A stretch of 64,000 bases of DNA from Bacteroidales bacterium UBA3754. Its GTDB lineage: Bacteria > Bacteroidota > Bacteroidia > Bacteroidales > UBA1715. Position 1 is the first letter of the stretch. The number at the start of each line of letters is the position of its first letter. Made by a program: the position numbers and the translations under genes. The notes under the pieces were generated by a model. It did no database searches. It was given only the letters and a program-made list of their open reading frames with translations, and was not told where the DNA came from. Below, one piece after another: positions 28,601 through 48,185 of the stretch. Where the stretch lies: assembly GCA_002371705.1 (NCBI GenBank), contig DFGI01000096.1, forward strand, positions 9,755-73,754. Direction: 5' to 3'.

Positions 28601-30110
28601 CAATCGCAATAATCGTATCCTTCAACGTGGTACAACCATCACTCCATTCTGTAAAATGATATCCTGCTTTAGGTGTTGCCGTTGCTATTATTTGAGTTCC
28701 ATAATCATACTTATTCTGATTTGCCGTTGGCGAATACGAAACTGTTCCCATTCCCGTGTCATTCGACTTTATGGTAATAGTTTGTTTTCCCGAAGCAAGC
28801 CGTGCCGAATACGTTGTATTGCCCGTAACCCTCACACGACGGGGATTTTCGGTATTTCCATCCCCCCATTGAGAGAACTTCAGACCATGCCCTGGTTCAA
28901 TTGAAACCGAAATTTCTATTGTATCGCCATAGTAGTATGTTCCAGCTCCATTCACGGTATAGTACGAAGTCACATCTCTAAAATTCACCCTTGTAGTTCC
29001 TTTCTCCGTAGAAATAGTGTACTGTTTTGGGGTAAAAATTGCGGTATAGTTATACACTCCGTTTACCTCAACGTGGAAATCAATATTATCGTCGGTAATT
29101 CCCGCACCATCATCTTCCCAGTGGTCGAATATACCATGAATAGTTGGTTCGGCAGTAACTTGAGCCATATAATGCTCGCAATCAGCTTGTTGCGTGGTTA
29201 CCACAGTACCAAGTTCAGTATTATTTGTGGCTGTGTTCAATGTAATAACTGGCGATTCGGTAAAACCACCTGTCGCATCGGAATACGAGCCCCAATTTCC
29301 ATTTGCGCCAGTGTAGGAAGAACCAGCATCGCACGGCACATAAATAAACTGCAACGACGTTCCAATCAAATCTTTTGCCAATGTTGGCGGCGTGTCGGCC
29401 TTGAAAATCAACGTGGTAAGTTTCGGACAATTATCAAACACGCCATAGTCAATATTAGTCATTGATACAGGTACTGTAATCGACTCAACATTCTGTTGGG
29501 CATACACAGCATCAGTTGCCATTTTCGAAACCCCATCGGGAATCACATACGTCGTAATTGGATTATTGTCTGGCATTTTCACAATCGTTTCCATATCGGC
29601 TGTGTAAATAATACCATCAATAACAGCAAAACAAGTATTGCCATCTTCCAAGTGAATAAGCCGTAATTTAGGACAGTCGGTCACCCAACGGTCCTGAATT
29701 GTGCATACGCCAGAGCCTATGGTTATTTCCTCCATATTCGAACAGCCACGGAACGCCTCATACGAAATTTTTGTAAGCGACGGCGGCATCGATATAGAGG
29801 TAAGATTATTGCATTGGTAAAATGCCGCATTACCGATGGATGTCACACCATTTTCAATCACAACTGACTTTATACTTGTTCGGTATCTATACCACGGAGC
29901 ATTTCCGTTGCCACGGCAACCATAATCCCAATTACCATGGTAATTTCTCATAGTACCAGTACCATAAATCGTTAAAACACCCGACTCCGTATCAAGAGTC
30001 CACTGAATTGCACCTATCGTTCCCGTGTATATAGTAGCTTGCACCGCCAACCAACCAAACACAATACAAATTGCGGTACAGAATGTTCGTAAAAATCTAT
30101 TCATAGTCAT
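16602..30110 (-). CDS. giant T9SS-secreted surface protein, 4502 aa: signal peptide, BspA-type LRRs, divergent InlB B-repeats, 47 tandem ~69-aa Listeria-Bacteroides-like modules, second InlB-B block, T9SS C-terminal sorting domain
   Basis: A single uninterrupted 13.5-kb ORF. LRR_5-like segments occur at residues ~75-250 (GVTSIGNAAFYQCNNLTSISMPPSLTKISYEAFRGC). GYxFxxWxDG modules occupy residues ~290-725 and 3946-~4430. The last ~75 aa (IYVINPVGEI...GVYIVKLISPEGSVQVRKVLVR) look like a type A Por_Secre_tail. Confidence 0.9.
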   Translation of the reverse strand: MTMNRFLRTFCTAICIVFGWLAVQATIYTGTIGAIQWTLDTESGVLTIYGTGTMRNYHGNWDYGCRGNGNAPWYRYRTSIKSVVIENGVTSIGNAAFYQCNNLTSISMPPSLTKISYEAFRGCSNMEEITIGSGVCTIQDRWVTDCPKLRLIHLEDGNTCFAVIDGIIYTADMETIVKMPDNNPITTYVIPDGVSKMATDAVYAQQNVESITVPVSMTNIDYGVFDNCPKLTTLIFKADTPPTLAKDLIGTSLQFIYVPCDAGSSYTGANGNWGSYSDATGGFTESPVITLNTATNNTELGTVVTTQQADCEHYMAQVTAEPTIHGIFDHWEDDGAGITDDNIDFHVEVNGVYNYTAIFTPKQYTISTEKGTTRVNFRDVTSYYTVNGAGTYYYGDTIEISVSIEPGHGLKFSQWGDGNTENPRRVRVTGNTTYSARLASGKQTITIKSNDTGMGTVSYSPTANQNKYDYGTQIIATATPKAGYHFTEWSDGCTTLKDTIIAIGDATYVAFFAVNTYKITATPNDAAMGTCSGYGTFKTGASTTLEATPNPGYSFVRWNDGNTNRTRTLTSISADANYIAEFAPIPYTITVVSSDNDRGTVSGGGTYDYNTTTTIRAVAKTGYHFLNWEDDVYAPAERDVLVLGNATYTANFGLNSYEITATSADNSMGTVSGGGTYDYNSSVTLTATPKVGYHFVAWNDAVATDSRTITVTGDASYEATFAINQYTIVFKNDDGSELQSSSYDYLSLPSCEIPTKTATAQYTYTFAAWSPTVVNVTADATYTATYNATVNSYTITFKNEDGAVLQSSQVAYGEKPTYGGATPTKDATAQYTYTFAGWDKTISDVTGDAVYTATYNSTVNQYTITFKNEDATLQSLLLAYGATPEYSGITPTKTSTVQYDYTFNGWTPTITAVSSSAVYSATFASSLREYAVTFKNEDGTVLQSSNVAYGMVPVYSGATPEKSADAQYSYSFNGWNKEIVAVTGAVVYTAVYVSTVKEYTITFVDDDNSVLQSSKFAYGTMPTCDEPTKESTVQYSYSFNGWTPTVAAVTGEATYKATYVATLNKYTITFKNEDGTVLQSSKVNYGEMPSYSGATPVKSPTAQYTYTFADWNTEIVEVEGDATYTATYNQTVNSYVVTFKNEDGTVLQSGEIAFGAMPVYSGATPAKSATAQYTYSFAGWNKEIIAVTSSVTYTATFESTVNEYLVTFEDEDGTELQSSNVAYGVKPVYSGETPTKAATAQYSYTFNGWDKTIANVTESIVYAATYTATVNKYIISFKNEDGTILQSSDVNYGEMPSYVGETPTKSATAQYTYSFAGWNNTIVKVDGTAEYVAVYTPSLNSYHITFYDEDGTTVLQEKNVAYGETPTCQTPTKEATAQYTYTFEAWTPAIAQVTENASYTASYHAITNSYLVKFVDEDGEKVLQTSNVAYGEMPEYVEATPEKTATAQYTYSFAGWDKPIVAVTGAVVYTAVYSETVNSYTVVFVDENLSKLKEQVYEYGATPSCEPPSKAATAQYTYVFDGWSPAIGAVTGNITYTAMYAAEVNTYDAVFENEDGTELQKLEQLEYGTLPVYSGETPTKSATAQYSYVFKGWNKTIVPITEDVVYTATYTIHTNSYTIVFKNYDGTELQSAEVEYGVIPSYSGSMPTRPTDGINTYSFAGWDVDPVAVVGDAVYTATFSNATNKYVITFYDEDGETVLQDDEFVYGATPICENPQKAATAEYTYTFNGWSPAIEKVTGTASYVATYRAVKNTYVIDFVDEDGTTILQSSEVEYGATPIYVEATPIKASTAQYSYLFDGWNSEIVPVTGAATYLATYRATVNDYIIIFKDEDGTELKRYSVEYGETPSCEEPSKAATAQYTYNFAGWSPAVVPVDGTATYTATYESNVHTYVVTFKNENGDELQKIEDVAYGVTPVYSGATPVKASTEQYEYTFDGWDKTIVPVVGDVTYTATFAANLQKYIVVFKNYDGTELQSSQVEYGAVPVYSGATPIRPANDENTYTFVGWDNALTAVNTDAVYIAQYSNSLNSYTITFYDEDGTTELRSIELQYGATPVYTGVIPVKTATAEYTYSFDTWIPTIKPVTGDASYTAKYSAERNSYVVTFLDEDGETTLLSKSYEYGTMPVYTGATPTKASTAQYSYSFIGWNKPIATVIGNDTYVAVFTPTVNSYLVIFENEDGGELQKSLVEYGTMPLYEGETPVKASTIQYSYNFVGWDKTISEVVENVVYVATYEEVTRKYNVSFVNDDNTELQSMDYEYGAMPLYEGETPVKDATAQYTFEFDGWDKTIIPVTGDATYVATFSKTTNSYEITFKNYDGTVLQSSQVAYGEIPSYNGEIPARPSEAGNNYLFKGWNVPIAPVSADMEYVATYSDETTTYPISFYDEDGTTLLHKIDFVYGAMPTCSNPTKDDDERYTYSFAAWHPELHEVDGAESYVASYQAHKKSFTITFVDEDGETVLASAQYEYGAIPSTAVPTKLSTAQYSYSFAGWSPAVVPVTENATYTATYRAVTNSYRITFVDENSNKIFAQDYEYGAMPSCVAPQKDATAQFTYTFDGWSPAVAEVTGTAVYKATYSESVNSYEIMFKNDDGSVLQRSTVAYNAMPLYEGAEPTKSATAQYSYEFAGWNKTIRAVVGDEIYVATYSVSINTYLVTFKNFDGEVLQSSNVAYGTIPSYNEAVPTKPADEEYEYSFVGWNKTIDVVTEDVVYTAVFTKSTNSYTIIFRNYNDTILQTSQFGYGALPMCPIPTRNADVRYTYVFNSWTPELTAVAFDAEYFATYTAITNKYVVTFVDEDGETILQKREYEYGAMPTYSGAMPTKSSTDQYSYVFNGWDKSITKVTGETVYTATFVEQERKYTITFVDEDYSVISTMEYAYGATPTIAAPEKSSTAQYSYEFKGWTPAISEVVANATYRAEYDVVVNQYVVKFNNADGTELQSSNVLYGSHPVYEGETPSKPSTMQYSYEFAGWNKPLVDVSCDVVYTATFTESVNEYTVIFKNYNGDILQISKVAYGNYPSFVGAVPTKPSENGKTYSFAGWNVVPSRVTDNAVYTATFTDATTMFEITFVDDDGSVLQQSNFAYGAMPICAVPSKLADAQYTYDFDSWYPKPTIVTEDKTYTATYKSEKKKYLVTFKDDDGTILQSQQYEYGEKPVCAAPTKAPTAQYSYTFAGWNYHVIEVAADAVYTATYVQSTNQYTVSFLDDDNSIIASVIYDYGQMPSMENPTKASNNQYEYLFEEWTPSLVEVTADASYKASYSATERTYSVVFANEDGTELQRTDETYGTYPAYVGETPQKEGNAQYSYEFTGWNKTIVAVTGNTTYIAVFMQVTNKYVVTFKDEDGEVLQSSEMPFGSYPSYENQYPTKVGEEGVTYTFAGWNTELVKVTDDAEYIATYTTETQLYQITFKNYNDQILQRTDVPYGAMPTCYAPTRVADAQFSYEFDSWSPDLIPVERAATYYAVFKEHLNTYSVKFVEEDGTMLDGSGVFAYGEKLSVPTPSKPATEQYVYTFIGWDKPVEVVTADVVYTARFSQSLRKYAITFEDENGEKLSASGEYEYGSLPTCNAPTKPSNEQFTYSFEGWNPAITPVNAATTYRPQYSEITNTYSIAFVNEDGTELQNTQVLYGEMPEYHGAVPTKMGSERESFAFIGWNKTIVPVVGDETYTTMYESVANTYTVVFKNEDGSVLQQSSYEYGVVPSYDGALPQKPNDVGNVYTFAGWNVTPVKVVGDAVYTATYMLASDMYVITFVDEDGTILQQTEFNYRSVPTCPIPTKLADDKYSYTFESWSPDLQPVTTEATYTAVYAKTPKTYLVNFMSEDGTTVLLKQMAHYGEMPTFTEEIPAKVGNEQYSYSFCCWSPELESVTGNATYTITYNTVVNQYVVSFKNYDGTMLQVSVLNYGDMPLYDGETPKRATDAASSYTFKGWNHDISPVTKTETYVAQYTVSPAKYSITATANNVAYGYVDGGGIYDYNYSLELRAVENYGYHFVRWSDGVMQNPRQLTVLKNYSVEALFEPLQYSISIAVNNSNFGYIEGGYDLYDFNSEVTVEAVPNEGYEFYQWANGSKNTQKTFVMNGDMYDTAYFKPKTFIVSAMTNDVLMGTVAGVGSYNYNSMVTLTAEPRDGFEFVKWDDGNTNATRKFVIVNDTTFMAVFKPTQYTVTLTVNNENYGEVFGAGVYNINVDTVIEARCKYGYEFIEWSDGVVDMKRRIVVVEDTTYEARFKPIVYELSLYSSDESMGSVDGSGSYEYGSDIEIAAVPEKGYRFDSWSDGDTVALRTYRIKASTNLVANFVPIEYEVRLSVNDSYFGTVEGAGLYSYQSDAELVANPIYGYKLGGWSTGQTTDTIRVTVLSDTLIIANFVPEQYQLTLKLSDDSAGVVTGDGIFDFMQVAVVSVQAAEGYEFIEWSDGNTDTVRNIMMTKDVELEARFRKIENTELQLYTIPHYIILKYVKDYDIYVINPVGEITHFTSKSPDIDVEYYMPTMGVYIVKLISPEGSVQVRKVLVR
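18276..27935 (-). repeat. coding tandem array: 47 modules of 67-70 aa (consensus YTITFKNEDGTVLQSS.V.YG..P.YSG.TPTK.ATAQYTYTFAGW.K.I..VTGDAVYTATY....N.)
   Basis: I delimited the modules by hand at residues 726..3945 of the 4502-aa ORF. Modules 13-47 (18276..25472) follow a 5-module order. Confidence 0.85.
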
Positions 30111-30281: not shown

Positions 30282-30365
30282 GCTCGAATGTTGGAATTGG
30301 TAGACAAGCATGTTTCAGGAGCATGTGTCTTCACGGACATGCGGGTTCGAGTCCCGCTTCGAGCA
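30282..30365 (+). tRNA. tRNA-Leu (anticodon CAG)
   Basis: Acceptor GCTCGAA pairs with TTCGAGC. The anticodon stem is CATGT/GCATG with loop TTCAGGA. There is a long variable arm, and the T arm is GCGGG-TTCGAGT-CCCGC. Confidence 0.9.
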
Positions 30366-30382
30366 CACAGAGTTCTTTATTT

Positions 30383-30466
30383 GCTCAGGTGTTGGAATTG
30401 GTAGACAAGCATGTTTGAGGGGCATGTGGCCATTAGGCCGTACGGGTTCAAGTCCCGTTCTGAGCA
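30383..30466 (+). tRNA. tRNA-Leu (anticodon GAG)
   Basis: Acceptor GCTCAGG pairs with TCTGAGC (one G-U pair). The anticodon loop is TTGAGGG. There is a long variable arm, and the T arm is ACGGG-TTCAAGT-CCCGT. Confidence 0.9.
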
Positions 30467-37921: not shown

Positions 37922-38902
37922 TTATTTCTTCTTTGAATTTTCAATTACCGACATTGCAGTGGCAAGCACGCTGCTTACGTCCGTCATATTTTGCGGAATA
38001 ATCATTGTGTTGTTTTCCTTTGCCAACTTGCCAAATTCATTCAAATACTGTTCGGCAATACGCAAGTTCACCGCCTCTGTACCATTCTCAGAACCGATTG
38101 CAGCTGCAATTTCGCGGAGACCCGTAGCGGTTGCACGGGCAATTTGTTCAATTTCACTCGCCTTACCTGCGGCTTCGTTCACACGACGTTGCTGTTCACC
38201 TTCGGAACGGGCAATCAACTCTTGCTTGTCGGCATTAGCCACGTTGATTTTTGCCTGCATTTCACCTTCGGATTTTGCAATCAATTCCTGACGGGCAGCC
38301 TCTGCCGCATTGATTTTCGCTTGTTTCGCACCTTCGGATTCTGCGATAATGGCACGTTTTTCACGTTCGGCACGCATTTGCTTTTCCATCGCGTCCTTGA
38401 TGCTTTGCGGAGGCGTAATGTTCTTTACTTCGTAACGGGTGATTTTGATTCCCCACGAATCGCTTGCCTTGTCAACAGCAGAAACGATAACAGAATTAAT
38501 AGAATCACGTTCCTCGAATGTCTTGTCGAGTTCCAATTTACCAATCACACTACGCATAGTGGTTTGTGCCAATTGAATTGATGCAAACGCATAATTATCA
38601 ATACCATACGAAGCGTTTTTTGGATCCATCACCTGAAGATACATAATACCGTCAACCTCAACGGAAATGTTATCACGGGTGATACACGTCTGCGAAGGCA
38701 CATCGATAGCCTGTTCTTTCAACGAATGTTTGTATGCCACACGGTCGATGAACGGGATAATAATGTGGAAACCAGCCAAAAGCGTTTGGTGGTATTTACC
38801 AAGACGTTCAACAATATACGCCTCGCGCTGAGGCACGATTTTAAGACTTCCAGTAAGGACAAAGAATGCAAGAATGCAGACAGCAATAAGAAATGTTACC
38901 AT
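37922..38902 (-). CDS. SPFH/band 7 (stomatin/paraslipin-like) membrane protein
   Basis: 326 aa with an N-terminal TM helix and the SPFH core (IVPQREAYIVERLGKY...). The C-terminus is an Ala/Glu/Lys-rich coiled coil. Confidence 0.85.
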   Translation of the reverse strand: MVTFLIAVCILAFFVLTGSLKIVPQREAYIVERLGKYHQTLLAGFHIIIPFIDRVAYKHSLKEQAIDVPSQTCITRDNISVEVDGIMYLQVMDPKNASYGIDNYAFASIQLAQTTMRSVIGKLELDKTFEERDSINSVIVSAVDKASDSWGIKITRYEVKNITPPQSIKDAMEKQMRAEREKRAIIAESEGAKQAKINAAEAARQELIAKSEGEMQAKINVANADKQELIARSEGEQQRRVNEAAGKASEIEQIARATATGLREIAAAIGSENGTEAVNLRIAEQYLNEFGKLAKENNTMIIPQNMTDVSSVLATAMSVIENSKKK

Positions 38903-39009: not shown

Positions 39010-42000
39010 TTATTCCACAACAATCTTAAAAATTTGTTTGCCAACCGTCACGATATACACTCCGTCAAGTTTTATTGAGAATGCGTATTCGTCAAGGTCT
39101 TGGGCTGAAGTTATTTTTTGTCCATTTATGTTGTAGATGGTTGCTTCTGCACGTTCTGCATTTTTCACGTGGATTGTCTTTCCTATTGCATAAACTTCAA
39201 CATTTGATGTCAAATCGGCAATTGCATCTGGAATGTCAATATTTTCAGCTTCGGCAATATTGGAAATAGCCAACGCAAACGGTCCCGATTCGGCTTTCAG
39301 GAATTGAGTTTTCGGATTTACCACTTCGGGCAGTTTTACGCCGACGTAGTATGAAATCACGTTGCTGATTGCCGTATCGACAGTGTATGACGTGAAGTTT
39401 GCCGAAAGTGTTGCCAAAGTATCGACAAGGATTTTGCCGTTTTCTTTGTGTTTGCACATCACTATAAACGACTCGTAATCAATACCTTCGTATGCGTTCC
39501 AAATCAGGTTCGTCTGATTTTTATTCTCCTCGGTGTCGGCACCGGCAACTTTGGCAATGTGCATCGTGGTGTGATGCTCGCTCATCTCGGTTTCCTCGCC
39601 GCACACGTCGGTTACGGAAATCTTGTAACGCCACGGCTGAATGTTCGGGTCGGCTTCTTCATCTTCGTAAACGCTTAATTCTGAATATTTTACTTGAGCT
39701 ATTTCCTCAAACACGTCTTTCCTTTCCGATTCACGGTAAATCGTGTAGAAATCAATCAAATCGGTGTTTTCCTTCAACCAAACCACCAAGTTCTTGCCCG
39801 TTTGTTCGCTCACGGTCACGAGGGCGATTTCGGGCTGTTTCAACGGAATTGAAGGAACGGTTACGTCCAATGTTGCGGTACAATTGTTTTCGTCGGTCAC
39901 AACCAGAGTGTAGTCGCCTGCACTGACATTTACCAAATTCTTGCTTGAACGGCCATTGTTCCAATGATAGATAAGATTGTCGTCGCCACTGATGATTACC
40001 GCACCACTTTTTTCATTGCAGGCGGTAGAAATGATATTAGAGATAGTAACGACGGGCGCATCTGGCTCTACCAACGTGAAGTTGTCGCTGATTGAACAGC
40101 CAGTTTCGGTGTTGGTTATCACAACGGAATAGTCGCCTTCTGCAAGGTTGGCAACGTTTTGCGTAGTTGCCTCGTTGCTCCAAGCAAATGAGGCGTTTTC
40201 GGCACCTGTCAAGGTAATTGAGATTGCACCGTCGGCGTTGGAGCAAGTAGGATTTTTGATTTTTGCCGACAGCTTCATCTCTTCTGGTTGTGACACCGTG
40301 TAAGTCTTTCTGTATGTACAATTTTCGTCATACGAGATTACGACTTCGTAGTTTCCTGCCTGTATATTTCGTATTGTGTCCTCGGTGGAAGTCTCATTTG
40401 TCCATTGCGTAGTATATTGACTCTCGGCGTTCGTCACCTTCAGGGCGATTTCGCCGTCGCTTTCGCCGAAGCAAGACACGTTTGTGATTGTTTCCTCAAC
40501 TTGAATGTTGCAAGCCAAAACAACTGTTGCCGTCGCCTTCACCGTGTTCTTCTCGCCGTTCGGAAGGGTTGCCGTCACCGTAATTTCCGCCTCGCCTTCG
40601 TATTCATACACAGTAAGGAACAGTTTGCCGTCACTCACCGTTGCCGCTACCACGTTTGGAGCGGAACTTGCGGCACTGTATGAAATTTCACTACCTTCGG
40701 TAGTGACGAAAAGGTCGGTAAGGTCGATTGGAGCAGCTTCTCTTTCTGTTTTTAGCGTTGGGATTTCGAGAACGCCACTGATTTGAACTTTCTCTTTCTC
40801 CTTGAAGTTGGCAACCAATGTCGTGTCTTTCGTCACCGTCAGCTGTATTCTCTCGTCTTTCAGCTCTCCGTTGTTCCAGCCGATGAACTCGTAACCTTCG
40901 TTGGCAACTGCCTTCAGCGTCGCAGTCGATTTGTATTCAACATAACCTTCGCCTGTGACGGTTCCCATAATCTTGCTGTAATCAACGGAAACTTTGTACT
41001 CGTTGATAGTCCATTTGGCGTAGAACGTCTTGTCGCCTGTTTCGCCCGACAAGATTGACAATATGGTTGAACCGATATACGACGAATTGCTGTACCAGCC
41101 AGCAAATGTGTAGCCCTCTTTGGTAACGTCGGTCGGCAAGGTTGCGCCTTTGCCGTATTCGTAACGTTCTATATTTTGTTCTTCGGCGATTGTGCCTTCG
41201 TTGGTTACAAGAGTTACGTTATAAGTGTTTACAATCCAATTTGCATAAAATGCTTTATTACCGAGTTCGACCGACGAAATCATTGCAACGCGTTCGCCTT
41301 CAAATTCGGCATTGTCGTACCAGCCGTCGAAGGTGAAACCTGTTTTTGTCACATCGCTTGGAAGAATTACGGTCGTGCCATAGATGTAGTTTTTCACATT
41401 TCCGTTGTTGATTGTTCCACCGTTTGGTTCGAACGTGATTGAATATGAATTAACAAGCCAATTTGCATAGAAGGCCTTCTCGCCGATTTCGGTTGAAGAG
41501 ATTGATTGAACGGACGAACCGAGATATGACGAGTTGGTGTACCAGCCGCCGAACGTGTAGCCGTCTCTCGTAATATTTGTAGGCAAGGTTGCTCCTTTGC
41601 CGTAGGTGTATCGTTCCACATTGCCAGAATTGATAACGCCACCGTTGGTTTCGAGAGTTACTATGTACGAATTCACGTTCCAGTTAGCATAAAAGGTGAG
41701 ATTTCCCGTCTTCGACTCGGAAATGCGTGTGACGCGTGCCGTTGCGCAGTCCTTGTCGGCGTACCAGCCATCGAAGGTGTAGCCAGTCTTGGTCACGTCG
41801 GACGGGAGCGGAATGCCGTAGCCGTAGGTGTAGTTCGCCACGTTGCCCGAGTTGATTGTTCCGCCATTGGTTTCGAGGGTGACAGTGTAGGAATTCACAT
41901 TCCATTTAGCCCAAAATTCCTTGTCGCCGATTTCGGCTGACGAAATTGCCTGCACTGCTTCGCCTACATACGCCGAATTGGTGTACCAGCCGCCGAAGGT

Positions 42001-45000
42001 GTAGCCCTCGCGTGTAGGAACAGGCAGTGTGATTTCGCTGCCTATGCGGTAGGTGGCGGGAACGTCGTCGTCGCCAATGGTGCCGCCGTTGTAGTTGAGC
42101 GTGATGTCGTAGTCAACCACGCTCCAGTCGGCCCAAAATTCGCGTTCGCCAAATTCGGTTGTGGAAATAAGCGTGACGGGGTTGCCCGTGCGTTGTTCGT
42201 TGTCGTACCAACCACGGAACAGATAGCCACGTTGCGTAACGTCGGCTGGAAGAACCACACCCACGGTGTAGGTGTAGGACTCAACCACCACGTTGTTTAT
42301 AGTACCGCCGTTAGTGTGGAACGTGATTGGATAATCCTGTTCCTTCCAGCGGGCCCAGAACTGCTTGTCGCCCAAGTCGGTGTCGGTGATTTCGGTGAAT
42401 GCCGACCCGATGAAGCTTGAATTGTCGTACCAGCCGGCAAAGTCGTAGCCAGTCTTTGTCACATTTGAAGGAAGCTCCGTGCGTTTGCCGTATTTATAAA
42501 GCACCACGTTTCCGCTGTTGATTGTGCCGCCGTTGGTGTGCAAGGTCACAAAGTAGCCGTTTTCCTCCCATTTTGCCCAAAATTCCTTGTCGCCGAACTC
42601 AGCCACGGAAACCATGCTCACCGCGTCGCCCTCGCAGAGTTCGTTGTCGTACCAGCCGGCGAACATGTGGCCGTCGCGCTCCATATTGGAGTACGACGGA
42701 AGAACAGCACCCACGCCGAAAGTGTAGTTCGCCACATTGCCCGTAATGATGGTTCCGCCGTTTTCGTGGAGCGTAATATTATACGTTATAGGGTTCCATT
42801 TTGCATAGAATGTCTTGTCGCCGTATTCCGACGAGGCGATTTTTGTGACAGCCGTGCCCGTGCAGTTCACGTTGGCGAACCATCCGCCAAAGGTACATCC
42901 GTCCTTCTCGATGGCGGGAAGCGTGACTTCGGTGCCGTAGTGGTACGAAGTGGCGTAGTCGTCGGTGGTGATGGTTCCGCCGTTGTTGTTGAACGAGATA
43001 ACATAGTCGCGAACCGTCCAGAAGGCGTAGAGCGTAATGTCGGACGTGTTTTTATAGCGTGCCACAGCCGATTTTCCCTCATACGTATAATATTGTACGC
43101 CGCCGCCGTTCTCCTCGGTGAAATATCCGCCGAAGGCGTATCCAACGCTGTCGGGACAGATAACGACCTGCAACGGTGCGTCGTAGGTCGCCTCGATTGA
43201 AGCCGTGCCGAGCGTGGTCGGCTCGCCTTGGCTGAATGTTACGGTGTAGGTGTTAGGTTTCCACACGGCAAAGAGTTCCACCACCTCGTTGTTCACGTCG
43301 GTGAGGTTCTTCACGCTCTGACCGTCGGTGTAGGTGATTGACGACGCCTGTGCGGCCGTAGCCCAGCCGAGGAACTCGTAACCCGTGCGGGTGTAGGTGT
43401 TCGCAGCAAGCGGCGACTCGGCGTCGTAGGTGCAGGCGCTGTTAGGCATCGCCTCGGAATCGTCGGCACCGGCGGGATTGTATGCTATGTAGTAGGTGTT
43501 TGTGGTCCATTTTGCGTAGAAAGTTTTGTCGCCCATATCGGTGGCGCCGATGGAATAGACGGGCTCGCCCGTGAGTTCGGCGTTGGGGTACCAGCCGTAG
43601 AACGTGTAGCCGGGCTTTTCAAGCACGGGGAGTTGCAGGGCGGTGCCATAGACGTGCGTAGTCACGTCGATGTCCGACGAAAGTTCCGCACCGTTGCCCA
43701 CGAGCGTCACCTTGAACTGTTTCGGGCTCCATTTTGCATAGAAAGTCTTGTTGCCCATATCGGTGGGATAGATTTCCGTCACGGGGCTTCCCGTGAGGGA
43801 TTCGTTGGCGAACCAGCCCTCGAAGTTGTGGCCGGGCTTTTCGATGTTGGTAGGCAGCGTGGCTCCCACCGAATAGGTGTAGCGGCTGAAATTGCCGTCG
43901 ATTATGGTACCGCCGTTAGGATTGAGCGAAACGGCGTAGGTGGGATACATTTTGAAGTTTGGCACGGAATTGTTCGCCGAAATTGACGAAACCGAGGCGG
44001 CATTGCCGCACGCGTCGGTAACGGAGCCGTTGATGCCCGTAACCTTCACAGTTCCCGTGATGCCCGAAGCTGATGTGGTTGTGAGGTCGGAGTAGAACAC
44101 CAGCGTGTTGGTGTTGAGACCGCAGGCATAGTTGAACGAGAACGACCGCGAGCCGATGCTGACCGATGCGCCCGAAACGTTGCCCGTGACTGGTTCGTTG
44201 AAGTGGACAGCCACATAGAGTCGTTCGCCGCTGGTGTAGATGCGGCTGACGTTCGTCGAAATTCCCGTGACGACAGGGGCGGCGTTGTCTTGTACCCTTA
44301 CATTTGCCACAATATTTGATAAATCGGCACCTACTGTCTTTATTCTAAAGCCAATATGCTTTGTAGGGTCCATATCAACAAACCACTCGTAATCACTGGT
44401 AGAGTAATGAGTTATGTAATCCTTGTTTAAGTAAGAATCAACAGAACCAAAACCACCATTAAACTGACTTTGGGTTGGAAACGTATATGTTTTATAATAA
44501 TTTGCACTTGAAGCATACCAATCACTAAAAAACTCATTACATAAATTTGCCTCTAATCCCGAAGGTTTGTATCTTTCGTCCCAATAATAAGATAGGTTAT
44601 AATTCCGTTTGATGACACCTATTTCACTTGCATTACCATCCAATGTAATCCCAACGCCTTGTAAGGTTGTAGATTCAGTCACATAACGAAGATAATACGT
44701 CATTTGCACCTGAAAATCGTATTTCCCCGTTTGGTCGGAGAAAGTATAATAATCTTTTGTAATACCAGAGAATGCATCACCCATGGCAGAATTGCATGTA
44801 AAATCATACTGATTATAACCTAAAGATATATCATCAGTAATTTTCTGTGCTTGAGTAGTGTTAATATCGCTTGCCGAGATAACTGTAGCGTCGTCCCACC
44901 AGCCAGTGGAGCGAGGCGTGTTGGCCATGGAGTTGTTGTGAATGCAGAAATAGAACAGCCGCGAGATGCCCGCCTCGAGATTAAATTTATCAATGGAAGC

Positions 45001-45261
45001 AACGGAATAAAGCGGCACGGTAACGATTTTGGAAGATTCGCCTTTTGCAAATTCAAACCGTCCAGCAACGTCCTCGTAGTGAATGCCCGCCACGGCGCTG
45101 CCGCTCTGCGTGTAGTATTCCACCCAGCTCGCCGCCGAAGCGTCGCTACGCGAAATGGTGAACACGTTTCCTCCCGAAACCGAGACGGTGAAGGAGTCGG
45201 GGTCGGCAAAGGCGGCAAGGGCCATTGCCATGAGAATGAATAAGGTAGATATTTTTTTCAT
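39010..45261 (-). CDS. large T9SS-secreted adhesin-like protein, 2083 aa: Calx-beta-like N-terminus, 13 Listeria-Bacteroides repeats plus 1 InlB-B-like repeat, 3 SprB repeats, FN3-like region, T9SS C-terminal sorting domain
   Basis: Signal peptide MKKISTLFILMAMALAAFA. A Calx-beta-like segment reads GSAVAGIHYEDVAGRFEFAKGESSKIVTVPL. Repeats of the type Y.VTL.TNGGTI...GYTF.GWY....FYA.W are present. SprB-type units read C.G..DG.I...with Y..QW/F.W/YHW. The tail is VYAIGKTIHVKNAE...GVYIVTVGKQIFKIVVE. Confidence 0.9.
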   Translation of the reverse strand: MKKISTLFILMAMALAAFADPDSFTVSVSGGNVFTISRSDASAASWVEYYTQSGSAVAGIHYEDVAGRFEFAKGESSKIVTVPLYSVASIDKFNLEAGISRLFYFCIHNNSMANTPRSTGWWDDATVISASDINTTQAQKITDDISLGYNQYDFTCNSAMGDAFSGITKDYYTFSDQTGKYDFQVQMTYYLRYVTESTTLQGVGITLDGNASEIGVIKRNYNLSYYWDERYKPSGLEANLCNEFFSDWYASSANYYKTYTFPTQSQFNGGFGSVDSYLNKDYITHYSTSDYEWFVDMDPTKHIGFRIKTVGADLSNIVANVRVQDNAAPVVTGISTNVSRIYTSGERLYVAVHFNEPVTGNVSGASVSIGSRSFSFNYACGLNTNTLVFYSDLTTTSASGITGTVKVTGINGSVTDACGNAASVSSISANNSVPNFKMYPTYAVSLNPNGGTIIDGNFSRYTYSVGATLPTNIEKPGHNFEGWFANESLTGSPVTEIYPTDMGNKTFYAKWSPKQFKVTLVGNGAELSSDIDVTTHVYGTALQLPVLEKPGYTFYGWYPNAELTGEPVYSIGATDMGDKTFYAKWTTNTYYIAYNPAGADDSEAMPNSACTYDAESPLAANTYTRTGYEFLGWATAAQASSITYTDGQSVKNLTDVNNEVVELFAVWKPNTYTVTFSQGEPTTLGTASIEATYDAPLQVVICPDSVGYAFGGYFTEENGGGVQYYTYEGKSAVARYKNTSDITLYAFWTVRDYVISFNNNGGTITTDDYATSYHYGTEVTLPAIEKDGCTFGGWFANVNCTGTAVTKIASSEYGDKTFYAKWNPITYNITLHENGGTIITGNVANYTFGVGAVLPSYSNMERDGHMFAGWYDNELCEGDAVSMVSVAEFGDKEFWAKWEENGYFVTLHTNGGTINSGNVVLYKYGKRTELPSNVTKTGYDFAGWYDNSSFIGSAFTEITDTDLGDKQFWARWKEQDYPITFHTNGGTINNVVVESYTYTVGVVLPADVTQRGYLFRGWYDNEQRTGNPVTLISTTEFGEREFWADWSVVDYDITLNYNGGTIGDDDVPATYRIGSEITLPVPTREGYTFGGWYTNSAYVGEAVQAISSAEIGDKEFWAKWNVNSYTVTLETNGGTINSGNVANYTYGYGIPLPSDVTKTGYTFDGWYADKDCATARVTRISESKTGNLTFYANWNVNSYIVTLETNGGVINSGNVERYTYGKGATLPTNITRDGYTFGGWYTNSSYLGSSVQSISSTEIGEKAFYANWLVNSYSITFEPNGGTINNGNVKNYIYGTTVILPSDVTKTGFTFDGWYDNAEFEGERVAMISSVELGNKAFYANWIVNTYNVTLVTNEGTIAEEQNIERYEYGKGATLPTDVTKEGYTFAGWYSNSSYIGSTILSILSGETGDKTFYAKWTINEYKVSVDYSKIMGTVTGEGYVEYKSTATLKAVANEGYEFIGWNNGELKDERIQLTVTKDTTLVANFKEKEKVQISGVLEIPTLKTEREAAPIDLTDLFVTTEGSEISYSAASSAPNVVAATVSDGKLFLTVYEYEGEAEITVTATLPNGEKNTVKATATVVLACNIQVEETITNVSCFGESDGEIALKVTNAESQYTTQWTNETSTEDTIRNIQAGNYEVVISYDENCTYRKTYTVSQPEEMKLSAKIKNPTCSNADGAISITLTGAENASFAWSNEATTQNVANLAEGDYSVVITNTETGCSISDNFTLVEPDAPVVTISNIISTACNEKSGAVIISGDDNLIYHWNNGRSSKNLVNVSAGDYTLVVTDENNCTATLDVTVPSIPLKQPEIALVTVSEQTGKNLVVWLKENTDLIDFYTIYRESERKDVFEEIAQVKYSELSVYEDEEADPNIQPWRYKISVTDVCGEETEMSEHHTTMHIAKVAGADTEENKNQTNLIWNAYEGIDYESFIVMCKHKENGKILVDTLATLSANFTSYTVDTAISNVISYYVGVKLPEVVNPKTQFLKAESGPFALAISNIAEAENIDIPDAIADLTSNVEVYAIGKTIHVKNAERAEATIYNINGQKITSAQDLDEYAFSIKLDGVYIVTVGKQIFKIVVE
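40789..43938 (-). repeat. coding tandem array of 14 ~75-aa Listeria-Bacteroides/InlB-B type repeats
   Basis: Residues 442..1491 of the 2083-aa ORF, delimited by hand. Confidence 0.8.
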
Positions 45262-45292
45262 ATTTGTTTATTTTGTATGTTTCGTTTTTTAT

Positions 45293-45320
45293 GTAGAGAC
45301 GCGATTAATCGCGTCTCTAC
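45293..45320. repeat. REP-like perfect 28-nt palindrome GTAGAGACGCGATTAATCGCGTCTCTAC
   Basis: It lies 32 nt upstream of the start codon of the 2083-aa gene. It shares the GTAGAGACG...CGTCTCTAC arms with 38976..39005. Confidence 0.75.
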
Positions 45321-45397
45321 GAAAACGGGTGCAAGATAAAAACATTTTTCGTTACAAGGCACCAACGCGTTGTGTATTTTTACAGCCCGTTTTTTCT

Positions 45398-45429
45398 GTT
45401 ACTTTCTGTCTACAGCGACAGAAAGTAAC
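45398..45429. repeat. hairpin repeat GTTACTTTCTGTC-TACAGC-GACAGAAAGTAAC
   Basis: 13-bp stem, preceded by TTTTCT and followed by CAAAGA. It is a paralogue of the hairpin at 46509..46538. Confidence 0.7.
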
Positions 45430-45594
45430 CAAAGAACGCCGGCGACGCTGCATTCTCGCTAAAAATCTTCTCTCTCCGCTAAACTCTCGGGGATGGCTCC
45501 TCCCACAAGCCAACGCCGCCAAGCCGAGAATTCTTAACGCTCCGTTCAAAGATTTTCTTAACGCTCACCTGCAAAGTCGCAACGCTATCGTTAC

Positions 45595-45724
45595 GTGAGA
45601 GAAAGAAGAAAGATGATAATTGCTATTGACAACGGGGGAAAATGGTTGTATATTTGCGTCGTTCTTATGTATCAACATAAAGGCGTAAGCCCTGAACCAT
45701 TCGAGCAGCAGCCGATTAAGTTCG
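45595..45724. repeat. 130-bp conserved block, copy 1 (3' flank of nuclease-like paralogue A)
   Basis: Differs from 46728..46857 at 5 positions in my hand alignment. Confidence 0.85.
45626..45656 (+). promoter_or_regulatory. near-consensus promoter TTGACA-17nt-TATATTTG, copy 1
   Basis: TTGACA lies at 45626..45631 and TATATTTG at 45649..45656. It fits both the sigma70 -35/-10 pair and the Bacteroidetes TAnnTTTG box. Confidence 0.5.
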
Positions 45725-45786
45725 TGCGAATCTTTGGCTACGGCAAGAAGATTCAAAAAAAGGATTCTTTAGAATCCTTTTTTTAT
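45663..45786 (+). ncRNA. candidate ~125-nt small transcript convergent with paralogue A (predicted, boundaries approximate)
   Basis: Bounded by the promoter at 45626..45656 and the terminator at 45754..45786. There is no conserved ORF. Confidence 0.3.
45754..45786. terminator. bidirectional intrinsic terminator (A7-AGGATTCT/AGAATCCT-T7) overlapping the stop codon of paralogue A
   Basis: The stem lies at 45761..45778, flanked by an A-run and a T-run. Confidence 0.6.
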
Positions 45787-46475
45787 TTACGTTTATTCCA
45801 GAGTTTCAGGAACGTGTTCTCAAAATCGTTTGCCAATGCGGCATCTCTATCAATAACTATCAAACGTTTTCCTTTAAACAGAAACAAATATTGTAAAGAA
45901 CTGTTAGATTCAAATCCACATTGAATTTCTTTCTTTAAATAGCGGGCATTTTTTGTTCCAATGATGTCAATCACAAGTCTGTTGGACTGCTCACAACCTT
46001 TCTCAATCAGATGGTCGAGGGAATTTTTGCCGTCGAGGGTTTTGCCTTCCACATAGTAGAGTTTGTTATTCTGTCGCAGGACAAAATCCGCACTTTTCGT
46101 TGATGTGGGATTCGACAGCAGAAAGACATCGAACTTGTTTACCACGAGTTTCTGGGCAATTACAAGATTCTTGGGCATTTCGCCAGAAAGAAGAATGTCG
46201 TCGTACTGGCTGATGTTCAAGCCATAGACGGCATTTTCGGGTGTTGAATACCGTTTTAACACCTGAAACTCAGGGTTTTCCACTATCCATTGCAAAACGG
46301 AGACTTTTTCCTTATTCGTCGGGCATGCGTAATAATCCTTGATTGCCTTGTTGATTGACGTGCCCGCATACGGCGGTTTTTCGGTCGGCCTATACTCGCC
46401 AACCGACTCTGCCACAATATTATCTTGAATGGAATCCTCACTGTTTGGATTCTCATACGTTACGACTATTTCCAT
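45783..46475 (-). CDS. hypothetical protein with PD-(D/E)xK-like D-x12-E-x-K motif, paralogue A (230 aa)
   Basis: The internal ATG at 46475 gives MEIVVTYENPNSEDS, matching paralogue B. The upstream 25 codons of the listed ORF run through a hairpin repeat. The motif is SADFVLRQNNKLYYVEGKTL. Confidence 0.7.
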   Translation of the reverse strand: MEIVVTYENPNSEDSIQDNIVAESVGEYRPTEKPPYAGTSINKAIKDYYACPTNKEKVSVLQWIVENPEFQVLKRYSTPENAVYGLNISQYDDILLSGEMPKNLVIAQKLVVNKFDVFLLSNPTSTKSADFVLRQNNKLYYVEGKTLDGKNSLDHLIEKGCEQSNRLVIDIIGTKNARYLKKEIQCGFESNSSLQYLFLFKGKRLIVIDRDAALANDFENTFLKLWNKRK

Positions 46476-46479
46476 AGGG

Positions 46480-46487
46480 CAAAGATA
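46480..46487 (-). promoter_or_regulatory. -7 box TATCTTTG only 4 nt upstream of the paralogue A start codon (leaderless or very short leader)
   Basis: The minus strand reads TATCTTTGCCCTATG. The same arrangement occurs at 47608..47615. Confidence 0.35.
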
Positions 46488-46508
46488 TGGAAATAATGCG
46501 GATTTTCT

Positions 46509-46538
46509 GTTACTTTTTCTCTTGAAAGAAAAAGTAAC
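46509..46538. repeat. hairpin repeat GTTACTTTTTCT-CTTGAA-AGAAAAAGTAAC
   Basis: 12-bp stem, preceded by TTTTCT and followed by CAAAAA. Confidence 0.7.
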
Positions 46539-46727
46539 CAAAAAGTTCAAGACGGACCCGCTCGGCTAAAAATCAACTGCGTTCTGCTAAAGGCGTTGAA
46601 GTGCCGCACTATCGTATGACACAGGGTATCGTTACAAGGCACCAACGCCTTTTACGCTGCACTTCGTTGATTTTTTTCACGCCTCTCGGCTCAGTCGGAG
46701 GATCGTGCTGACAGAGATTTTTGTTTA

Positions 46728-46857
46728 GTGAGAGAAAGAAGAAAGATGATAATTGCTATTGACAACAGGGAAAAATGGTTGTATATTTGCGTCGTTCTTA
46801 TGTATCAACATAAAGGCGTAAGCCCTGAACCATTCGAGCAGCCACCGATTAAATTCG
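46728..46857. repeat. 130-bp conserved block, copy 2 (3' flank of nuclease-like paralogue B)
   Basis: See 45595..45724. Confidence 0.85.
46759..46789 (+). promoter_or_regulatory. near-consensus promoter TTGACA-17nt-TATATTTG, copy 2
   Basis: TTGACA lies at 46759..46764 and TATATTTG at 46782..46789. Confidence 0.5.
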
Positions 46858-46925
46858 GGAAATCTGCCACTACGGTGAAGCAAGATTATTAAAGGGAGGT
46901 CTAACTCCCTTTATTTATTTTTATT
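46796..46925 (+). ncRNA. candidate ~130-nt small transcript convergent with paralogue B (predicted; alternatively the 30-codon sORF 46800..46892)
   Basis: Bounded by the promoter at 46759..46789 and the stem-loop plus T-rich tract at 46891..46925. Confidence 0.3.
46891..46925 (+). terminator. intrinsic terminator AAAGGGAG-GTCTAA-CTCCCTTT + T-rich tail, overlapping the stop codon of paralogue B
   Basis: 8-bp stem followed by ATTTATTTTTATT on the plus strand. The minus strand has only a weak T-run. Confidence 0.5.
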
Positions 46926-47603
46926 CCATACCGTTTTGAATGACTTTAAAAATGTTTTTGCCACAAACATCTTCTTTGATACTTGTATCAACCGAGATCC
47001 TTTCAGCAAAAAGATTTCTTGTAGCACTGGATAAGACTCGAAAGCATTTTTTATTTCTTTCATTATATAATTCGTTTTCGTGGTTCCAATTATATCTATT
47101 ACAAGTCTATTTGACTGTTCGCAACCTTTCTCAATCAGATGGTCGAGGGAATTTTTACCGTCGAGGGTTTTGCCTTCCACATAGTATAGTTTATTATTCT
47201 GCCGCAGCACAAAATCCGCACTTTTCGTGGATGTGGGATTCGACAGCAGAAAGACATCGAACTTGTTTGCCACAAGTTTCTGGGCAATTACAAGATTCAT
47301 GGGCATTTCGCCAGAAATAAGAATGTCGTCGTACTGGCTGATGTTCAAGCCATAGACGGCATTTTCGGCTGTTGAATACCGTTTTAACACCTGAAACTCA
47401 GGGTTTTCCACTATCCATTGCAGGACGGAGACTTTTTCCTTGTTCGTCGGGCACGCATAGTAATCCTTGATTGCCTTGTTGATTGACGTGCCCGCATACG
47501 GTGGTTTTTCGGTCGGCCTATACTCGGCAACCGGTTCTGCCACAATATTATCTTGAATGGAATCCTCACTGTTTGGATTCTCATACGTTACGACTATTTC
47601 CAT
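46911..47603 (-). CDS. hypothetical protein with PD-(D/E)xK-like D-x12-E-x-K motif, paralogue B (230 aa)
   Basis: Same length as paralogue A. The N-terminal ~174 aa are nearly identical, and the C-terminal 56 aa match at 23/56. Confidence 0.75.
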   Translation of the reverse strand: MEIVVTYENPNSEDSIQDNIVAEPVAEYRPTEKPPYAGTSINKAIKDYYACPTNKEKVSVLQWIVENPEFQVLKRYSTAENAVYGLNISQYDDILISGEMPMNLVIAQKLVANKFDVFLLSNPTSTKSADFVLRQNNKLYYVEGKTLDGKNSLDHLIEKGCEQSNRLVIDIIGTTKTNYIMKEIKNAFESYPVLQEIFLLKGSRLIQVSKKMFVAKTFLKSFKTVWNKNK

Positions 47604-47607
47604 AGGG

Positions 47608-47615
47608 CAAAGATA
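47608..47615 (-). promoter_or_regulatory. -7 box TATCTTTG 4 nt upstream of the paralogue B start codon
   Basis: The minus strand reads TATCTTTGCCCTATG. An ATTG lies 20 nt upstream of the box. Confidence 0.35.
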
Positions 47616-47753
47616 TGGAAATAATGAGAAATGCTCAATGCGGAATTATGAAAATAAAGAGATTCCTCACTACGCTACGCTTCGTTCGGAATTACGGCCG
47701 AAGGGAAGAATCTCTTCAAAAAAAGGTGGAGTTTTTATTGAGAAAGGTAAAAA

Positions 47754-48185
47754 CTACTTTTTCTCCACCGTCAGTTTTATACTTTCACGGCTGGAAATCA
47801 CAACAGTCTCACCTTTATGAATTTCATCGGAAGAAAGTGCTTCCCATTTGGAACCTTTGAATTCCACTTCGCCACGACCATTGGTGAAATCGGTAAGCGC
47901 AACGGCTGTTTTGCCTATATATTCATCGGCAAGTTCATCACCACTTTCCTTTGAATTGTTGAAGAATCGATTTCGGAGCATTTTTCTGAAAACCAGCAAC
48001 AAAACCACCGAACTTACCACAAACACAATAAGTTGACCTTCAATTTGTAGCGAAGGGAAAATCCAAGCGGCTATGCCCGTAAGCAACGCGCCACATCCGA
48101 AAAACAGCACGATAAGTCCCGGCAGGATAAGCTCCAATGCCAATCCAATCACGCCGCACAACAACCAAATGGTAACTACGCTCAT
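47754..48185 (-). CDS. NfeD family membrane protein
   Basis: 143 aa with N-terminal TM helices followed by an OB-like soluble domain (GKTAVALTDFTNGRGEVEFKGSKWEALS...GETVVI). Confidence 0.75.
   Translation of the reverse strand: MSVVTIWLLCGVIGLALELILPGLIVLFFGCGALLTGIAAWIFPSLQIEGQLIVFVVSSVVLLLVFRKMLRNRFFNNSKESGDELADEYIGKTAVALTDFTNGRGEVEFKGSKWEALSSDEIHKGETVVISSRESIKLTVEKK

Follow-up and report, generated by a model that had tools for sequence, protein, structure and literature searches.

A predicted small-RNA gene accompanies a PD-(D/E)xK nuclease toxin domain in Bacteroidales chromosomes and in phages

Two nuclease genes and their convergent RNA genes

The window analysed here is a stretch of 64,000 nucleotides from Bacteroidales bacterium UBA3754 (assembly GCA_002371705.1, contig DFGI01000096.1, positions 9,755 to 73,754 of the forward strand). 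It carries two minus-strand genes in tandem, A and B, each encoding a 230-residue protein with a predicted nuclease fold. A preliminary description of this DNA had found no partner adjacent to either gene. This proved mistaken: the conserved 130-nt block lying 3' of each gene makes up most of a predicted small-RNA gene, convergent with the nuclease gene and sharing its terminator. The features of the two units, and the evidence by which each was located, are as follows.

47608..47638, minus strand: promoter of gene B, TTG-N20-TATCTTTG (pattern match)
46911..47603, minus strand: nuclease gene B, 230 residues (open reading frame (ORF) list, homologue alignment, AlphaFold2 models)
46890..46913: terminator common to gene B and RNA B, overlapping the gene B stop codon (inverted repeat and terminator scan)
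46794..46922, plus strand: small RNA B, about 125 nt (homology to RNA A, motifs, promoter and terminator scans)
46759..46789, plus strand: promoter of small RNA B, TTGACA...TATATTTG (promoter scan and pattern match)
46480..46487, minus strand: -7 box TATCTTTG of gene A (pattern match)
45783..46475, minus strand: nuclease gene A, 230 residues from an internal ATG (ORF list and alignment with copy B)
45755..45784, both strands: bidirectional intrinsic terminator common to gene A and RNA A (perfect 14-nt inverted repeat and terminator scan)
45661..45792, plus strand: small RNA A, about 130 nt, with predicted start and end (fold z-score and covariation)
45626..45656, plus strand: promoter of small RNA A, TTGACA...TATATTTG (promoter scan and pattern match)

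Both ORFs are present, and our comparison of the two copies reproduced the counts first made by hand: 21 of 504 nt are mismatched between 45995..46498 and 47123..47626 (the 5' block), 5 of 130 nt between 45595..45724 and 46728..46857 (the 3' block), and 23 of the last 56 residues are identical. Overall the two proteins are 83% identical, with 168 matches in the first 174 residues, and the 265 to 270 nt between the conserved blocks are 57.7% identical.

In protein B an acidic disordered tail (residues 1-37) is followed by a helical region (residues 38-100) and then by a PD-(D/E)xK core with D130, E143 and K145. AlphaFold2 gave a full-length model with a predicted local distance difference test score (pLDDT) of 82.6, in which residues 1-23 were modelled as a disordered tail, and a domain-only model (residues 97-230) with a pLDDT of 88.1. 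The models contain an alpha-beta-beta-beta-alpha-beta core (helix 102-112, strands 116-119, 129-135 and 138-147, helix 153-161, strand 166-171), with D130 at the start of the second strand and E143-x-K145 in the third. An alignment of 54 family members shows no variation at D130, E143, K145 or Q163, good conservation over residues 38-150 and family-wide variation in residues 150-230. Net charge is +3.9 in the core (residues 100-150) and +6.1 in the C-terminal 40 residues.

A Foldseek search with the whole protein was swamped by matches to acetyl-CoA carboxylase, which the domain-only model resolved. Its top match was the CdiA-CT of Burkholderia pseudomallei 1026b (4g6v_A; probability 1.00, TM score 0.49, E 2.4e-3) at a sequence identity of only 15%, and the next matches were almost entirely PD-(D/E)xK enzymes: YaeQ, Hjc, SfsA, HincII, RecU and a splicing endonuclease. 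The only Pfam family matched was CdiA_C (PF18451), which 30 of the 54 family members reached at E<=0.01. Scans with PADLOC, NCBIfam and PHROGs returned weak noise only. With the three catalytic residues invariant, the core strands in place in the models and a list of PD-(D/E)xK enzymes from the structure search, the nuclease assignment of the preliminary description has held, and we regard the predicted PD-(D/E)xK fold as solid. Membership of the CdiA_C family in particular is likely, but statistically weak.

Among 5.8 billion proteins searched we found 187 relatives, all of them "hypothetical" proteins of about 227-230 residues from uncultured rumen or gut Bacteroidales, with several per genome; a plasmid collection gave no match. 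In the following, L001 to L130 denote homologous loci whose DNA we fetched (about 850 kb, mostly found via the protein) and labels such as P0133 to P0216 denote homologous proteins from a profile search. A scan of species-representative genomes found four copies in the metagenome-assembled genome (MAG) that matches the window (RGIG6246; its locus L008 is 98% identical) and eight in another MAG.

The N-terminal tail (residues 1-37; 47493-47603 in B and 46365-46475 in A) has a net charge of -4.4 and a pLDDT below 50. It occurs only in the stand-alone proteins and is missing from the phage-fused forms described below; it could be an autoinhibitory or nucleic-acid-mimicking segment.

The -7 box of gene B (47608-47615) ends 4 nt before the ATG. 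For gene A, homology to copy B begins only at 46498, and for this reason the promoter pattern scan found no correctly spaced -33 TTG upstream of it. Across about 50 family loci the -7 box of the nuclease gene sits at -12 or -15 from the ATG, that is, it ends 4-7 nt before it. Such proximity implies that the toxin mRNAs would be leaderless or near-leaderless in nearly all copies.

When the regions downstream of the nuclease genes were aligned, the same order was found on the opposite strand: a promoter, about 95 nt of hairpins and the shared terminator. The conserved 130-nt 3' block corresponds to the promoter and the 5' two-thirds of this convergent gene. The promoters fit two patterns, the Bacteroidetes consensus TTG-N20-TAnnTTTG and a sigma-70 promoter TTGACA-17-TATATT (11 of 12 consensus positions). 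Single-sequence folds had z-scores of -4.85 (RNA A) and -5.26 relative to shuffled sequences. The parts of RNA A are listed below; in RNA B the 5' domain and the stem Px match those of RNA A, and the hairpin P4 (AAUCUGCCAC-UACG-GUGAAGCAAGAUU) and the terminator differ.

45665-45680: 5' hairpin
45682-45691: GNRA hairpin
45712-45725: Px, with loop UUAAGU
45728-45754: P4, capped by C(UACG)G
45755-45784: terminator

Further evidence for a structured RNA came from P4, a hairpin of 9-10 bp under its C(UACG)G cap. In 31 sequences all 10 of its pairs showed double compensatory changes and 90% of cells were paired. The covariation score was 0.571, compared with 0.257 +/- 0.02 for shuffled alignments (none of 500 shuffles reached the observed value) and 0.06-0.28 when the pairing partners were slid. 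The Px stem also covaries (CCG/CGG, CCA/UGG, CCGA/UCGG) below a nearly invariant hexaloop, UUAAGU or UUAAAU. The 5' domain falls into discrete types, each with a GNRA- or UUCG-capped hairpin (T1 in 31 of 77 copies, T2 in 29 and T3 in 14), and the 5' domains (T1-T5) and the P4 bulges do not fit a single column-wise structure. We assign the RNA to the plus strand because of its promoter, its U-tail and the tetraloop motifs (GNRA, UUCG and UACG) found on that strand.

A small protein is not a satisfactory alternative. Of 62 distinct RNAs, 43 have stops in all three frames, and across the family none of the frames stays open; the one plus-strand ORF that we considered (MIIAIDNGGKW...) starts upstream of the RNA promoter, has unconserved ends and is interrupted in T2 and T3, which carry stops in all frames. 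Rfam scans gave no known RNA family either: no family reached its gathering score in the window except for two tRNAs elsewhere, and between 45200 and 47800 only noise was obtained at E<=10.

The 3' block is 85-95% identical beside homologous genes that are themselves only 65-70% identical in DNA. The preliminary description had treated this block as a recombination flank; its conservation points instead to selection on the RNA, which appears to explain the 96% identity between copies A and B better than recent exchange does. Taken together, the promoter, the tetraloops, the fold scores and the covariation show that the block belongs to a predicted gene for a structured small RNA, the ends of which are placed by promoter and terminator.

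The Px hexaloop (45716-45721 in RNA A, 46849-46854 in RNA B) contains the palindrome UUAA, which could permit loop-loop dimerisation of the RNA.

Coupling of the RNA to a phage-toxin nuclease domain

Wherever a locus had enough flanking sequence the RNA gene lay beside the nuclease domain, whether in chromosomal copies, in uncultured phages or in a cultured phage. The -7 box of the RNA promoter was at its expected place in 77 of the 88 gene copies with an intact 3' end. Of the remaining 11, two are frameshifted copies and the others are distant relatives or are truncated at contig ends. The four that we inspected (L087-L089 and L092) all carry the RNA, three with variant -7 boxes and the fourth cut at a contig end. 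At L092 the RNA is still present although the protein is only 30% identical. Conversely, the fetched DNA as a whole contains 94 copies of the RNA, 89 of them at the 3' end of a family gene and the other five beside frameshifted copies or tandem remnants.

A search of IMG/VR seeded by an RNA 15-mer alone (CCGATTAAGTTCGTG) gave 31 matches. Ten had RNA context and all ten adjoin the nuclease domain; the other 21 were chance matches with neither RNA context nor nuclease domain. No orphan RNA away from the domain was found in the roughly 850 kb of mostly protein-found DNA or in this RNA-seeded viral scan.

These data bear on the possibility that the RNA merely hitch-hikes beside the nuclease gene, as a regulatory RNA in its own right or as part of a mobile-element end, and has a function unrelated to the nuclease. 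The 0.9-kb unit formed by the two genes does have sharp edges that are alike across unrelated genomic contexts, there are 4-8 copies per genome, and palindromes resembling repetitive extragenic palindromic (REP) elements flank some of them. However, the pairing survives across chromosomal genes and SPP1-like, Mu-like and Flavobacteriales phages at protein identities down to 30-40%, and no copy of the RNA was seen away from the domain in the DNA just described. We consider hitch-hiking very improbable.

The phage relatives came from the profile search, which covered 1.84 billion cluster representatives and found 260 proteins. Many matched at the extreme C-terminus of proteins of 311-1227 residues, over profile positions 38-227 or 95-227, so that the match constitutes the last 130-190 residues of a long phage protein. 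The long homologues carry a Gln_amidase domain ("papain fold toxin 1") just upstream of the nuclease, an N-terminal Phage_Mu_F domain, or both. Phage_Mu_F is present in P0190, P0216 and P0184 among others, whose genes follow portal genes; the last of these, a distant relative, scores 28.2 bits against CdiA_C, above the curated gathering cut-off of 26.6 bits. The genes of the long homologues come after terminase and portal genes where both are visible and otherwise after the portal gene alone. By the definition of Jamet et al. 2017 (PMC5576092) these proteins are MuF-type, capsid-borne polymorphic toxins of Bacteroidota phages, which confirms the link to polymorphic toxins suggested earlier from the window alone. 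Inteins or Hint domains interrupt the phage terminase of L094 (1242-3368) and the MuF toxin proteins P0133, P0190 and P0216.

One such phage is in culture. In vB_RanS_PJN03 (ON245412.1) a 578-residue protein is encoded after the terminase and portal genes; over its last 190 residues it shares 41% identity with the window protein. The nuclease domain is followed by the same RNA gene, and the protein and RNA region is unannotated or "hypothetical" in the record. The host, Riemerella anatipestifer, is read from the phage name, as the record names none. Each of the four phage toxin loci L093-L096 has the RNA after the toxin. The distant Mu-like phage toxins L129 and L130 are followed by a shorter equivalent, likewise convergent, which has a -7 box and hairpins and shares its terminator with the toxin gene.

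A CdiA-2 tRNase domain (cd13442) has already been listed among the C-termini of MuF toxins (Jamet et al. 2017, PMC5576092), and MuF toxins have been described for Bacteroidales (Alexei et al. 2024, PMC11699363). As in those studies, the toxins found here have the nuclease domain at the C-terminus, and some also have Gln_amidase and a small conserved ORF. The window genes differ in that they lack a MuF domain and are chromosomal and multicopy. The toxin of each unit adds a new, stand-alone member to a known family of toxin domains, CdiA-CT-like and MuF-associated, and the window proteins are stand-alone, chromosomal, multicopy versions of the MuF-associated domain with an extra acidic tail.

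The position of the RNA gene is also informative. MuF toxins normally have a small immunity ORF downstream (PMC5576092, PMC11699363). The stand-alone modules have no conserved protein-coding neighbor and no conserved ORF after the nuclease gene, and the downstream immunity protein expected of a polymorphic toxin pair is not encoded there: the block has stops in all frames family-wide. The RNA gene occupies the position where polymorphic-toxin loci carry the immunity gene, and an RNA gene in this antidote position is reported in neither PMC5576092 nor PMC11699363.

A conserved protein of 76-77 residues is encoded beyond the RNA gene at several phage loci (L093 2295-2528, L094 8812-9042, L037 4838-5041, L088/L089 about 3590-3810; E 3e-16 for L093 against L094). 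Where the full toxin is in view it lies only beside toxins that also bear Gln_amidase (the L093 type, L094, L037 and L088/L089); a homologue occurs at L106, where the toxin is cut by the contig end. It was never found beside stand-alone modules, the window included, or beside L095, L096 or the PJN03 toxin. This protein is a candidate immunity protein for the Gln_amidase domain. Since it goes with the Gln_amidase deamidase domain as the RNA goes with the nuclease domain, these toxins may combine two toxin domains with two antidotes.

Exchange of a cassette spanning protein and RNA

Copies A and B are unevenly diverged, and chance does not account for the mosaic. By Nei-Gojobori counting, the proportions of synonymous (pS) and non-synonymous (pN) differences between them are 0.14 and 0.016 in codons 1-160, and 0.72 (saturated) and 0.39 in codons 175-230. 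Codons 161-174 have nine synonymous and no non-synonymous differences, which places the DNA breakpoint near codon 160, upstream of the divergence in amino acids. Because saturation of synonymous sites is confined to the divergent 3' part, the mosaic is a product of recombination. As had been argued beforehand, it did not come from a duplication of uniform age: judged by these counts, the conserved and divergent parts differ in age and not only in selective pressure.

Divergence begins at codon 161, takes in the stop codon and the terminator and ends with P4; at Px the copies are alike again.

45725..45994, minus strand: variable cassette of copy A, comprising codons 161-230, the terminator and RNA P4 (57.7% identical to copy B between flanks of about 96%)
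46858..47122, minus strand: variable cassette of copy B (99% identical in L008 of the reference MAG and in L046)

Other strains show the same division. The 5' 480 nt of A, B, L008, L004 (another genomic locus), L040 and L043 are 95-98% identical regardless of the 3' cassette. For the 3' 210 nt there are discrete types, common to other strains and loci, with identities of about 60% between types and 97-99% within them.

A-type cassette: A, L043 and L071 (L044 at 86%)
B-type cassette: B, L008 and L046
L004-type cassette: L004 and L040
L005-type cassette: L007, L041 and L042

These types bear out the earlier proposal that the C-terminal cassette is replaced by recombination, with one correction: the swapped unit is not the C-terminal tail (codons 161-230) alone, as the terminator and RNA P4 are exchanged with it. 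In classical polymorphic toxins the whole toxin domain is exchanged, whereas here the catalytic residues lie in the conserved part. The mosaic of A and B arises because family members recombine in conserved sequence on either side, in the 5' part of the coding region and in that of the RNA gene, and so exchange a cassette of 70 final codons, terminator and hairpin P4.

At this particular locus the reference MAG has only a B-type module, in L043 and L071 an A-type module immediately precedes the same large surface-protein gene, and the strain in the window has both. L008 is itself a mosaic, its 5' part being 97.9% identical to A and 95.6% to B and its 3' part 99% identical to B. A simple tandem duplication is rejected by these three facts. 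Comparison of the strains indicates that A and B are alternative alleles of one locus that have recombined and been stacked in tandem in this strain. The expectation that homologues would form tandem arrays with variable C-termini is borne out in part: residues 150-230 are indeed variable, but tandem pairs are exceptional (the window, L011, and remnants in L012 and L058) and most copies are dispersed singles.

One further explanation can be weighed at this point, namely the original model of protein-only, stand-alone effectors that lack a partner and whose tails are swapped between passive flanks. Its nuclease fold, its cassette swapping and its relation to polymorphic toxins have all been confirmed. 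The 3' "flank", on the other hand, has its own promoter, covarying structure and terminator and is more conserved family-wide than the coding sequence, and as a complete account we find the model scarcely credible.

The 0.9-kb modules occupy many intergenic sites, and no transposase was seen at the module loci compared. A REP-like perfect palindrome, GTAGAGACGCGATTAATCGCGTCTCTAC, lies at 45288-45325 and also in L001 (5917-5945, 6913-6941 and 11220-12277), where there are copies to either side of the module and many more in its vicinity. The window has further hairpin repeats at 45391-45436, 46503-46544 and 47657-47716. One stand-alone module, in L005 (7123-9989), has surroundings suggestive of a defence island, with a HicB-like small ORF and genes for a HIRAN-domain protein and a WYL/WCX regulator.

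The two genes of the window lie between nfeD/hisG and the surface-protein gene. The nfeD gene and an SPFH/Band_7 gene (37922-38902 and 47754-48185), usually neighbors, are about 9 kb apart here, separated by both nuclease/RNA modules and a 2083-residue Flg_new/SprB-repeat surface protein (39010-45261). This looks like an insertion that interrupted an nfeD-SPFH operon. Elsewhere the window has a 4502-residue ORF (16602-30110, minus strand) followed by two tandem tRNA genes (30282-30466, plus strand).

The RNA as a putative antidote

We consider it somewhat probable that the small RNA is the antidote of the nuclease toxin. Each 0.9-kb unit would then be a two-gene toxin-antidote module in which the RNA neutralises the nuclease in the producing cell, most likely by binding directly to its basic catalytic face as an inhibitor or pseudo-substrate, in a type III-like manner. 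The chromosomal copies could serve as addiction or abortive-infection modules, or as an antidote store against incoming phage toxins. The fuller proposal is one that we put forward tentatively, at a little under even chances: the RNA would be an immunity factor that directly inhibits the PD-(D/E)xK domain, both in capsid-delivered MuF toxins of phages and in multicopy chromosomal modules of Bacteroidota, and the chromosomal arrays would represent a recombining stock of toxins and antidotes in an arms race between phage and host.

One alternative is that the RNA acts in cis as a type I-like regulator, with convergent transcription and the terminator overlap of about 30 nt controlling the stability, termination or read-through of the toxin mRNA and so limiting the amount of toxin. 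Every locus, phage or chromosomal, retains the convergent arrangement of the two genes around a single bidirectional terminator. Convergent RNAs that overlap at their 3' ends are known from par of pAD1 (RNA I/RNA II, with a shared bidirectional terminator) and from several type I systems of Bacillus. In RalR/RalA a DNase toxin is under the control of a small-RNA antitoxin (cited in PMC5576092), so that a nuclease toxin controlled by RNA also has a precedent. However, the type I RNAs pair extensively with the toxin mRNA, and the toxin here is a 230-residue enzyme rather than a short peptide. Compared with shuffled controls, complementarity of the RNA body to the whole toxin mRNA had a z-score of about 0, and to the start region a mean z of 0.12; only the shared terminator is complementary. 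Antisense pairing of the RNA body with the toxin mRNA was rejected on these grounds, and the lack of complementarity favours protein binding over antisense action. An antisense role would also leave unexplained about 95 nt of covarying structure with tetraloops and an invariant hexaloop, and a 5' domain that is nearly invariant while the proteins diverge to 45% identity. We regard a type I-like regulator as unlikely, at perhaps one chance in a handful.

It could also be speculated that the RNA is a cofactor, forming a ribonucleoprotein in which it activates, targets or scaffolds the enzyme or aids its loading into the capsid. In every architecture the RNA and the domain are strictly inherited together; the RNA is well structured, and the protein surface is basic. 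Nevertheless, the RNA has no variable, unstructured segment of guide length, its only hypervariable single strand being a linker of 4-6 nt; its gene is in the position of an immunity gene; and a cytoplasmic stand-alone nuclease toxin lacking any inhibitor would be hard for a cell to tolerate. Relatives such as CdiA-CT are reported to act without an RNA cofactor. A cofactor role is in our view quite improbable.

Several observations weigh against the antidote interpretation or the family assignment behind it. The window proteins score 24.1 (B) and 17.5 bits against CdiA_C, below the cut-off, the best Foldseek E-value of 2.4e-3 is weak at the level of the family, and a profile search of PDB sequences gave only spurious matches to ribosomal protein L23. 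The strand of the RNA is not settled by counts of G-U and A-C pairs alone (42 and 31). Co-variation between protein and RNA was nowhere clean beyond linkage or clade structure: a one-to-one specificity between C-terminal cassette and P4 was rejected, as the same P4 occurs with different C-termini, and nearest-neighbour concordance of RNA 5' type is similar for the core and the C-terminus. A single, convergent, downstream RNA is unlike known type III systems, and the invariably shared terminator hints at a cis or antisense element.

The protein feature that correlates best with RNA 5' type is the loop at residues 121-125, before D130 (47229-47243 in copy B), which reads [TS][SN] with T1, K[AG] with T2, and [RH][TN] plus A121 with T3. 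This could reflect protein-RNA co-evolution or clade signal, and we treat it as a lead only.

The module can be placed beside known systems. In B. pseudomallei 1026b CdiA-CT(II)/CdiI (4G6V; PF18451; cd13442), the toxin domain is likewise a PD-(D/E)xK nuclease, a tRNase, which is delivered by a type V secretion protein and neutralised by the CdiI protein encoded immediately downstream. The window domain has an additional N-terminal helical region (residues 38-100), occurs stand-alone or fused to MuF proteins, and has an RNA gene in place of the immunity ORF. The type III toxin-antitoxin systems ToxIN, CptIN and TenpIN resemble the module in joining a nuclease toxin to a structured non-coding RNA, which here too would neutralise by binding, and in occurring in both phages and chromosomes. 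Their toxins, in contrast, have the ToxN/AbiQ fold, and their antitoxin is a tandem-repeat array that is encoded upstream on the same strand and processed by the toxin, whereas the RNA described here is single and unrepeated, has its own promoter, and is convergent and downstream.

On the usual view polymorphic toxins, the MuF toxins of phages among them, are neutralised by small immunity proteins, and searches for immunity genes accordingly look for ORFs. This toxin domain is accompanied instead, at all loci with sufficient flanking sequence and across chromosomal copies and several types of phage, by an unannotated gene for a structured RNA. No RNA antitoxin or immunity RNA for a polymorphic toxin was described in the literature that we searched. 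If direct immunity by RNA is true, the RNA would have no precedent in that literature as an immunity factor of a polymorphic toxin, and the module would approach a new class. If the RNA is the antidote, RNA antitoxins would extend to a new toxin fold and to a gene architecture unlike those of types I and III, toxin genes that seem to lack an immunity partner would have an explanation, and a new RNA family, undetected by any Rfam model, would be defined. The system is directly testable, as vB_RanS_PJN03 provides a cultured phage-host pair that carries it. It is also a clean natural example of modular recombination, in which a single cassette takes in the C-terminus of a protein, the terminator that both genes share and one hairpin of the RNA.

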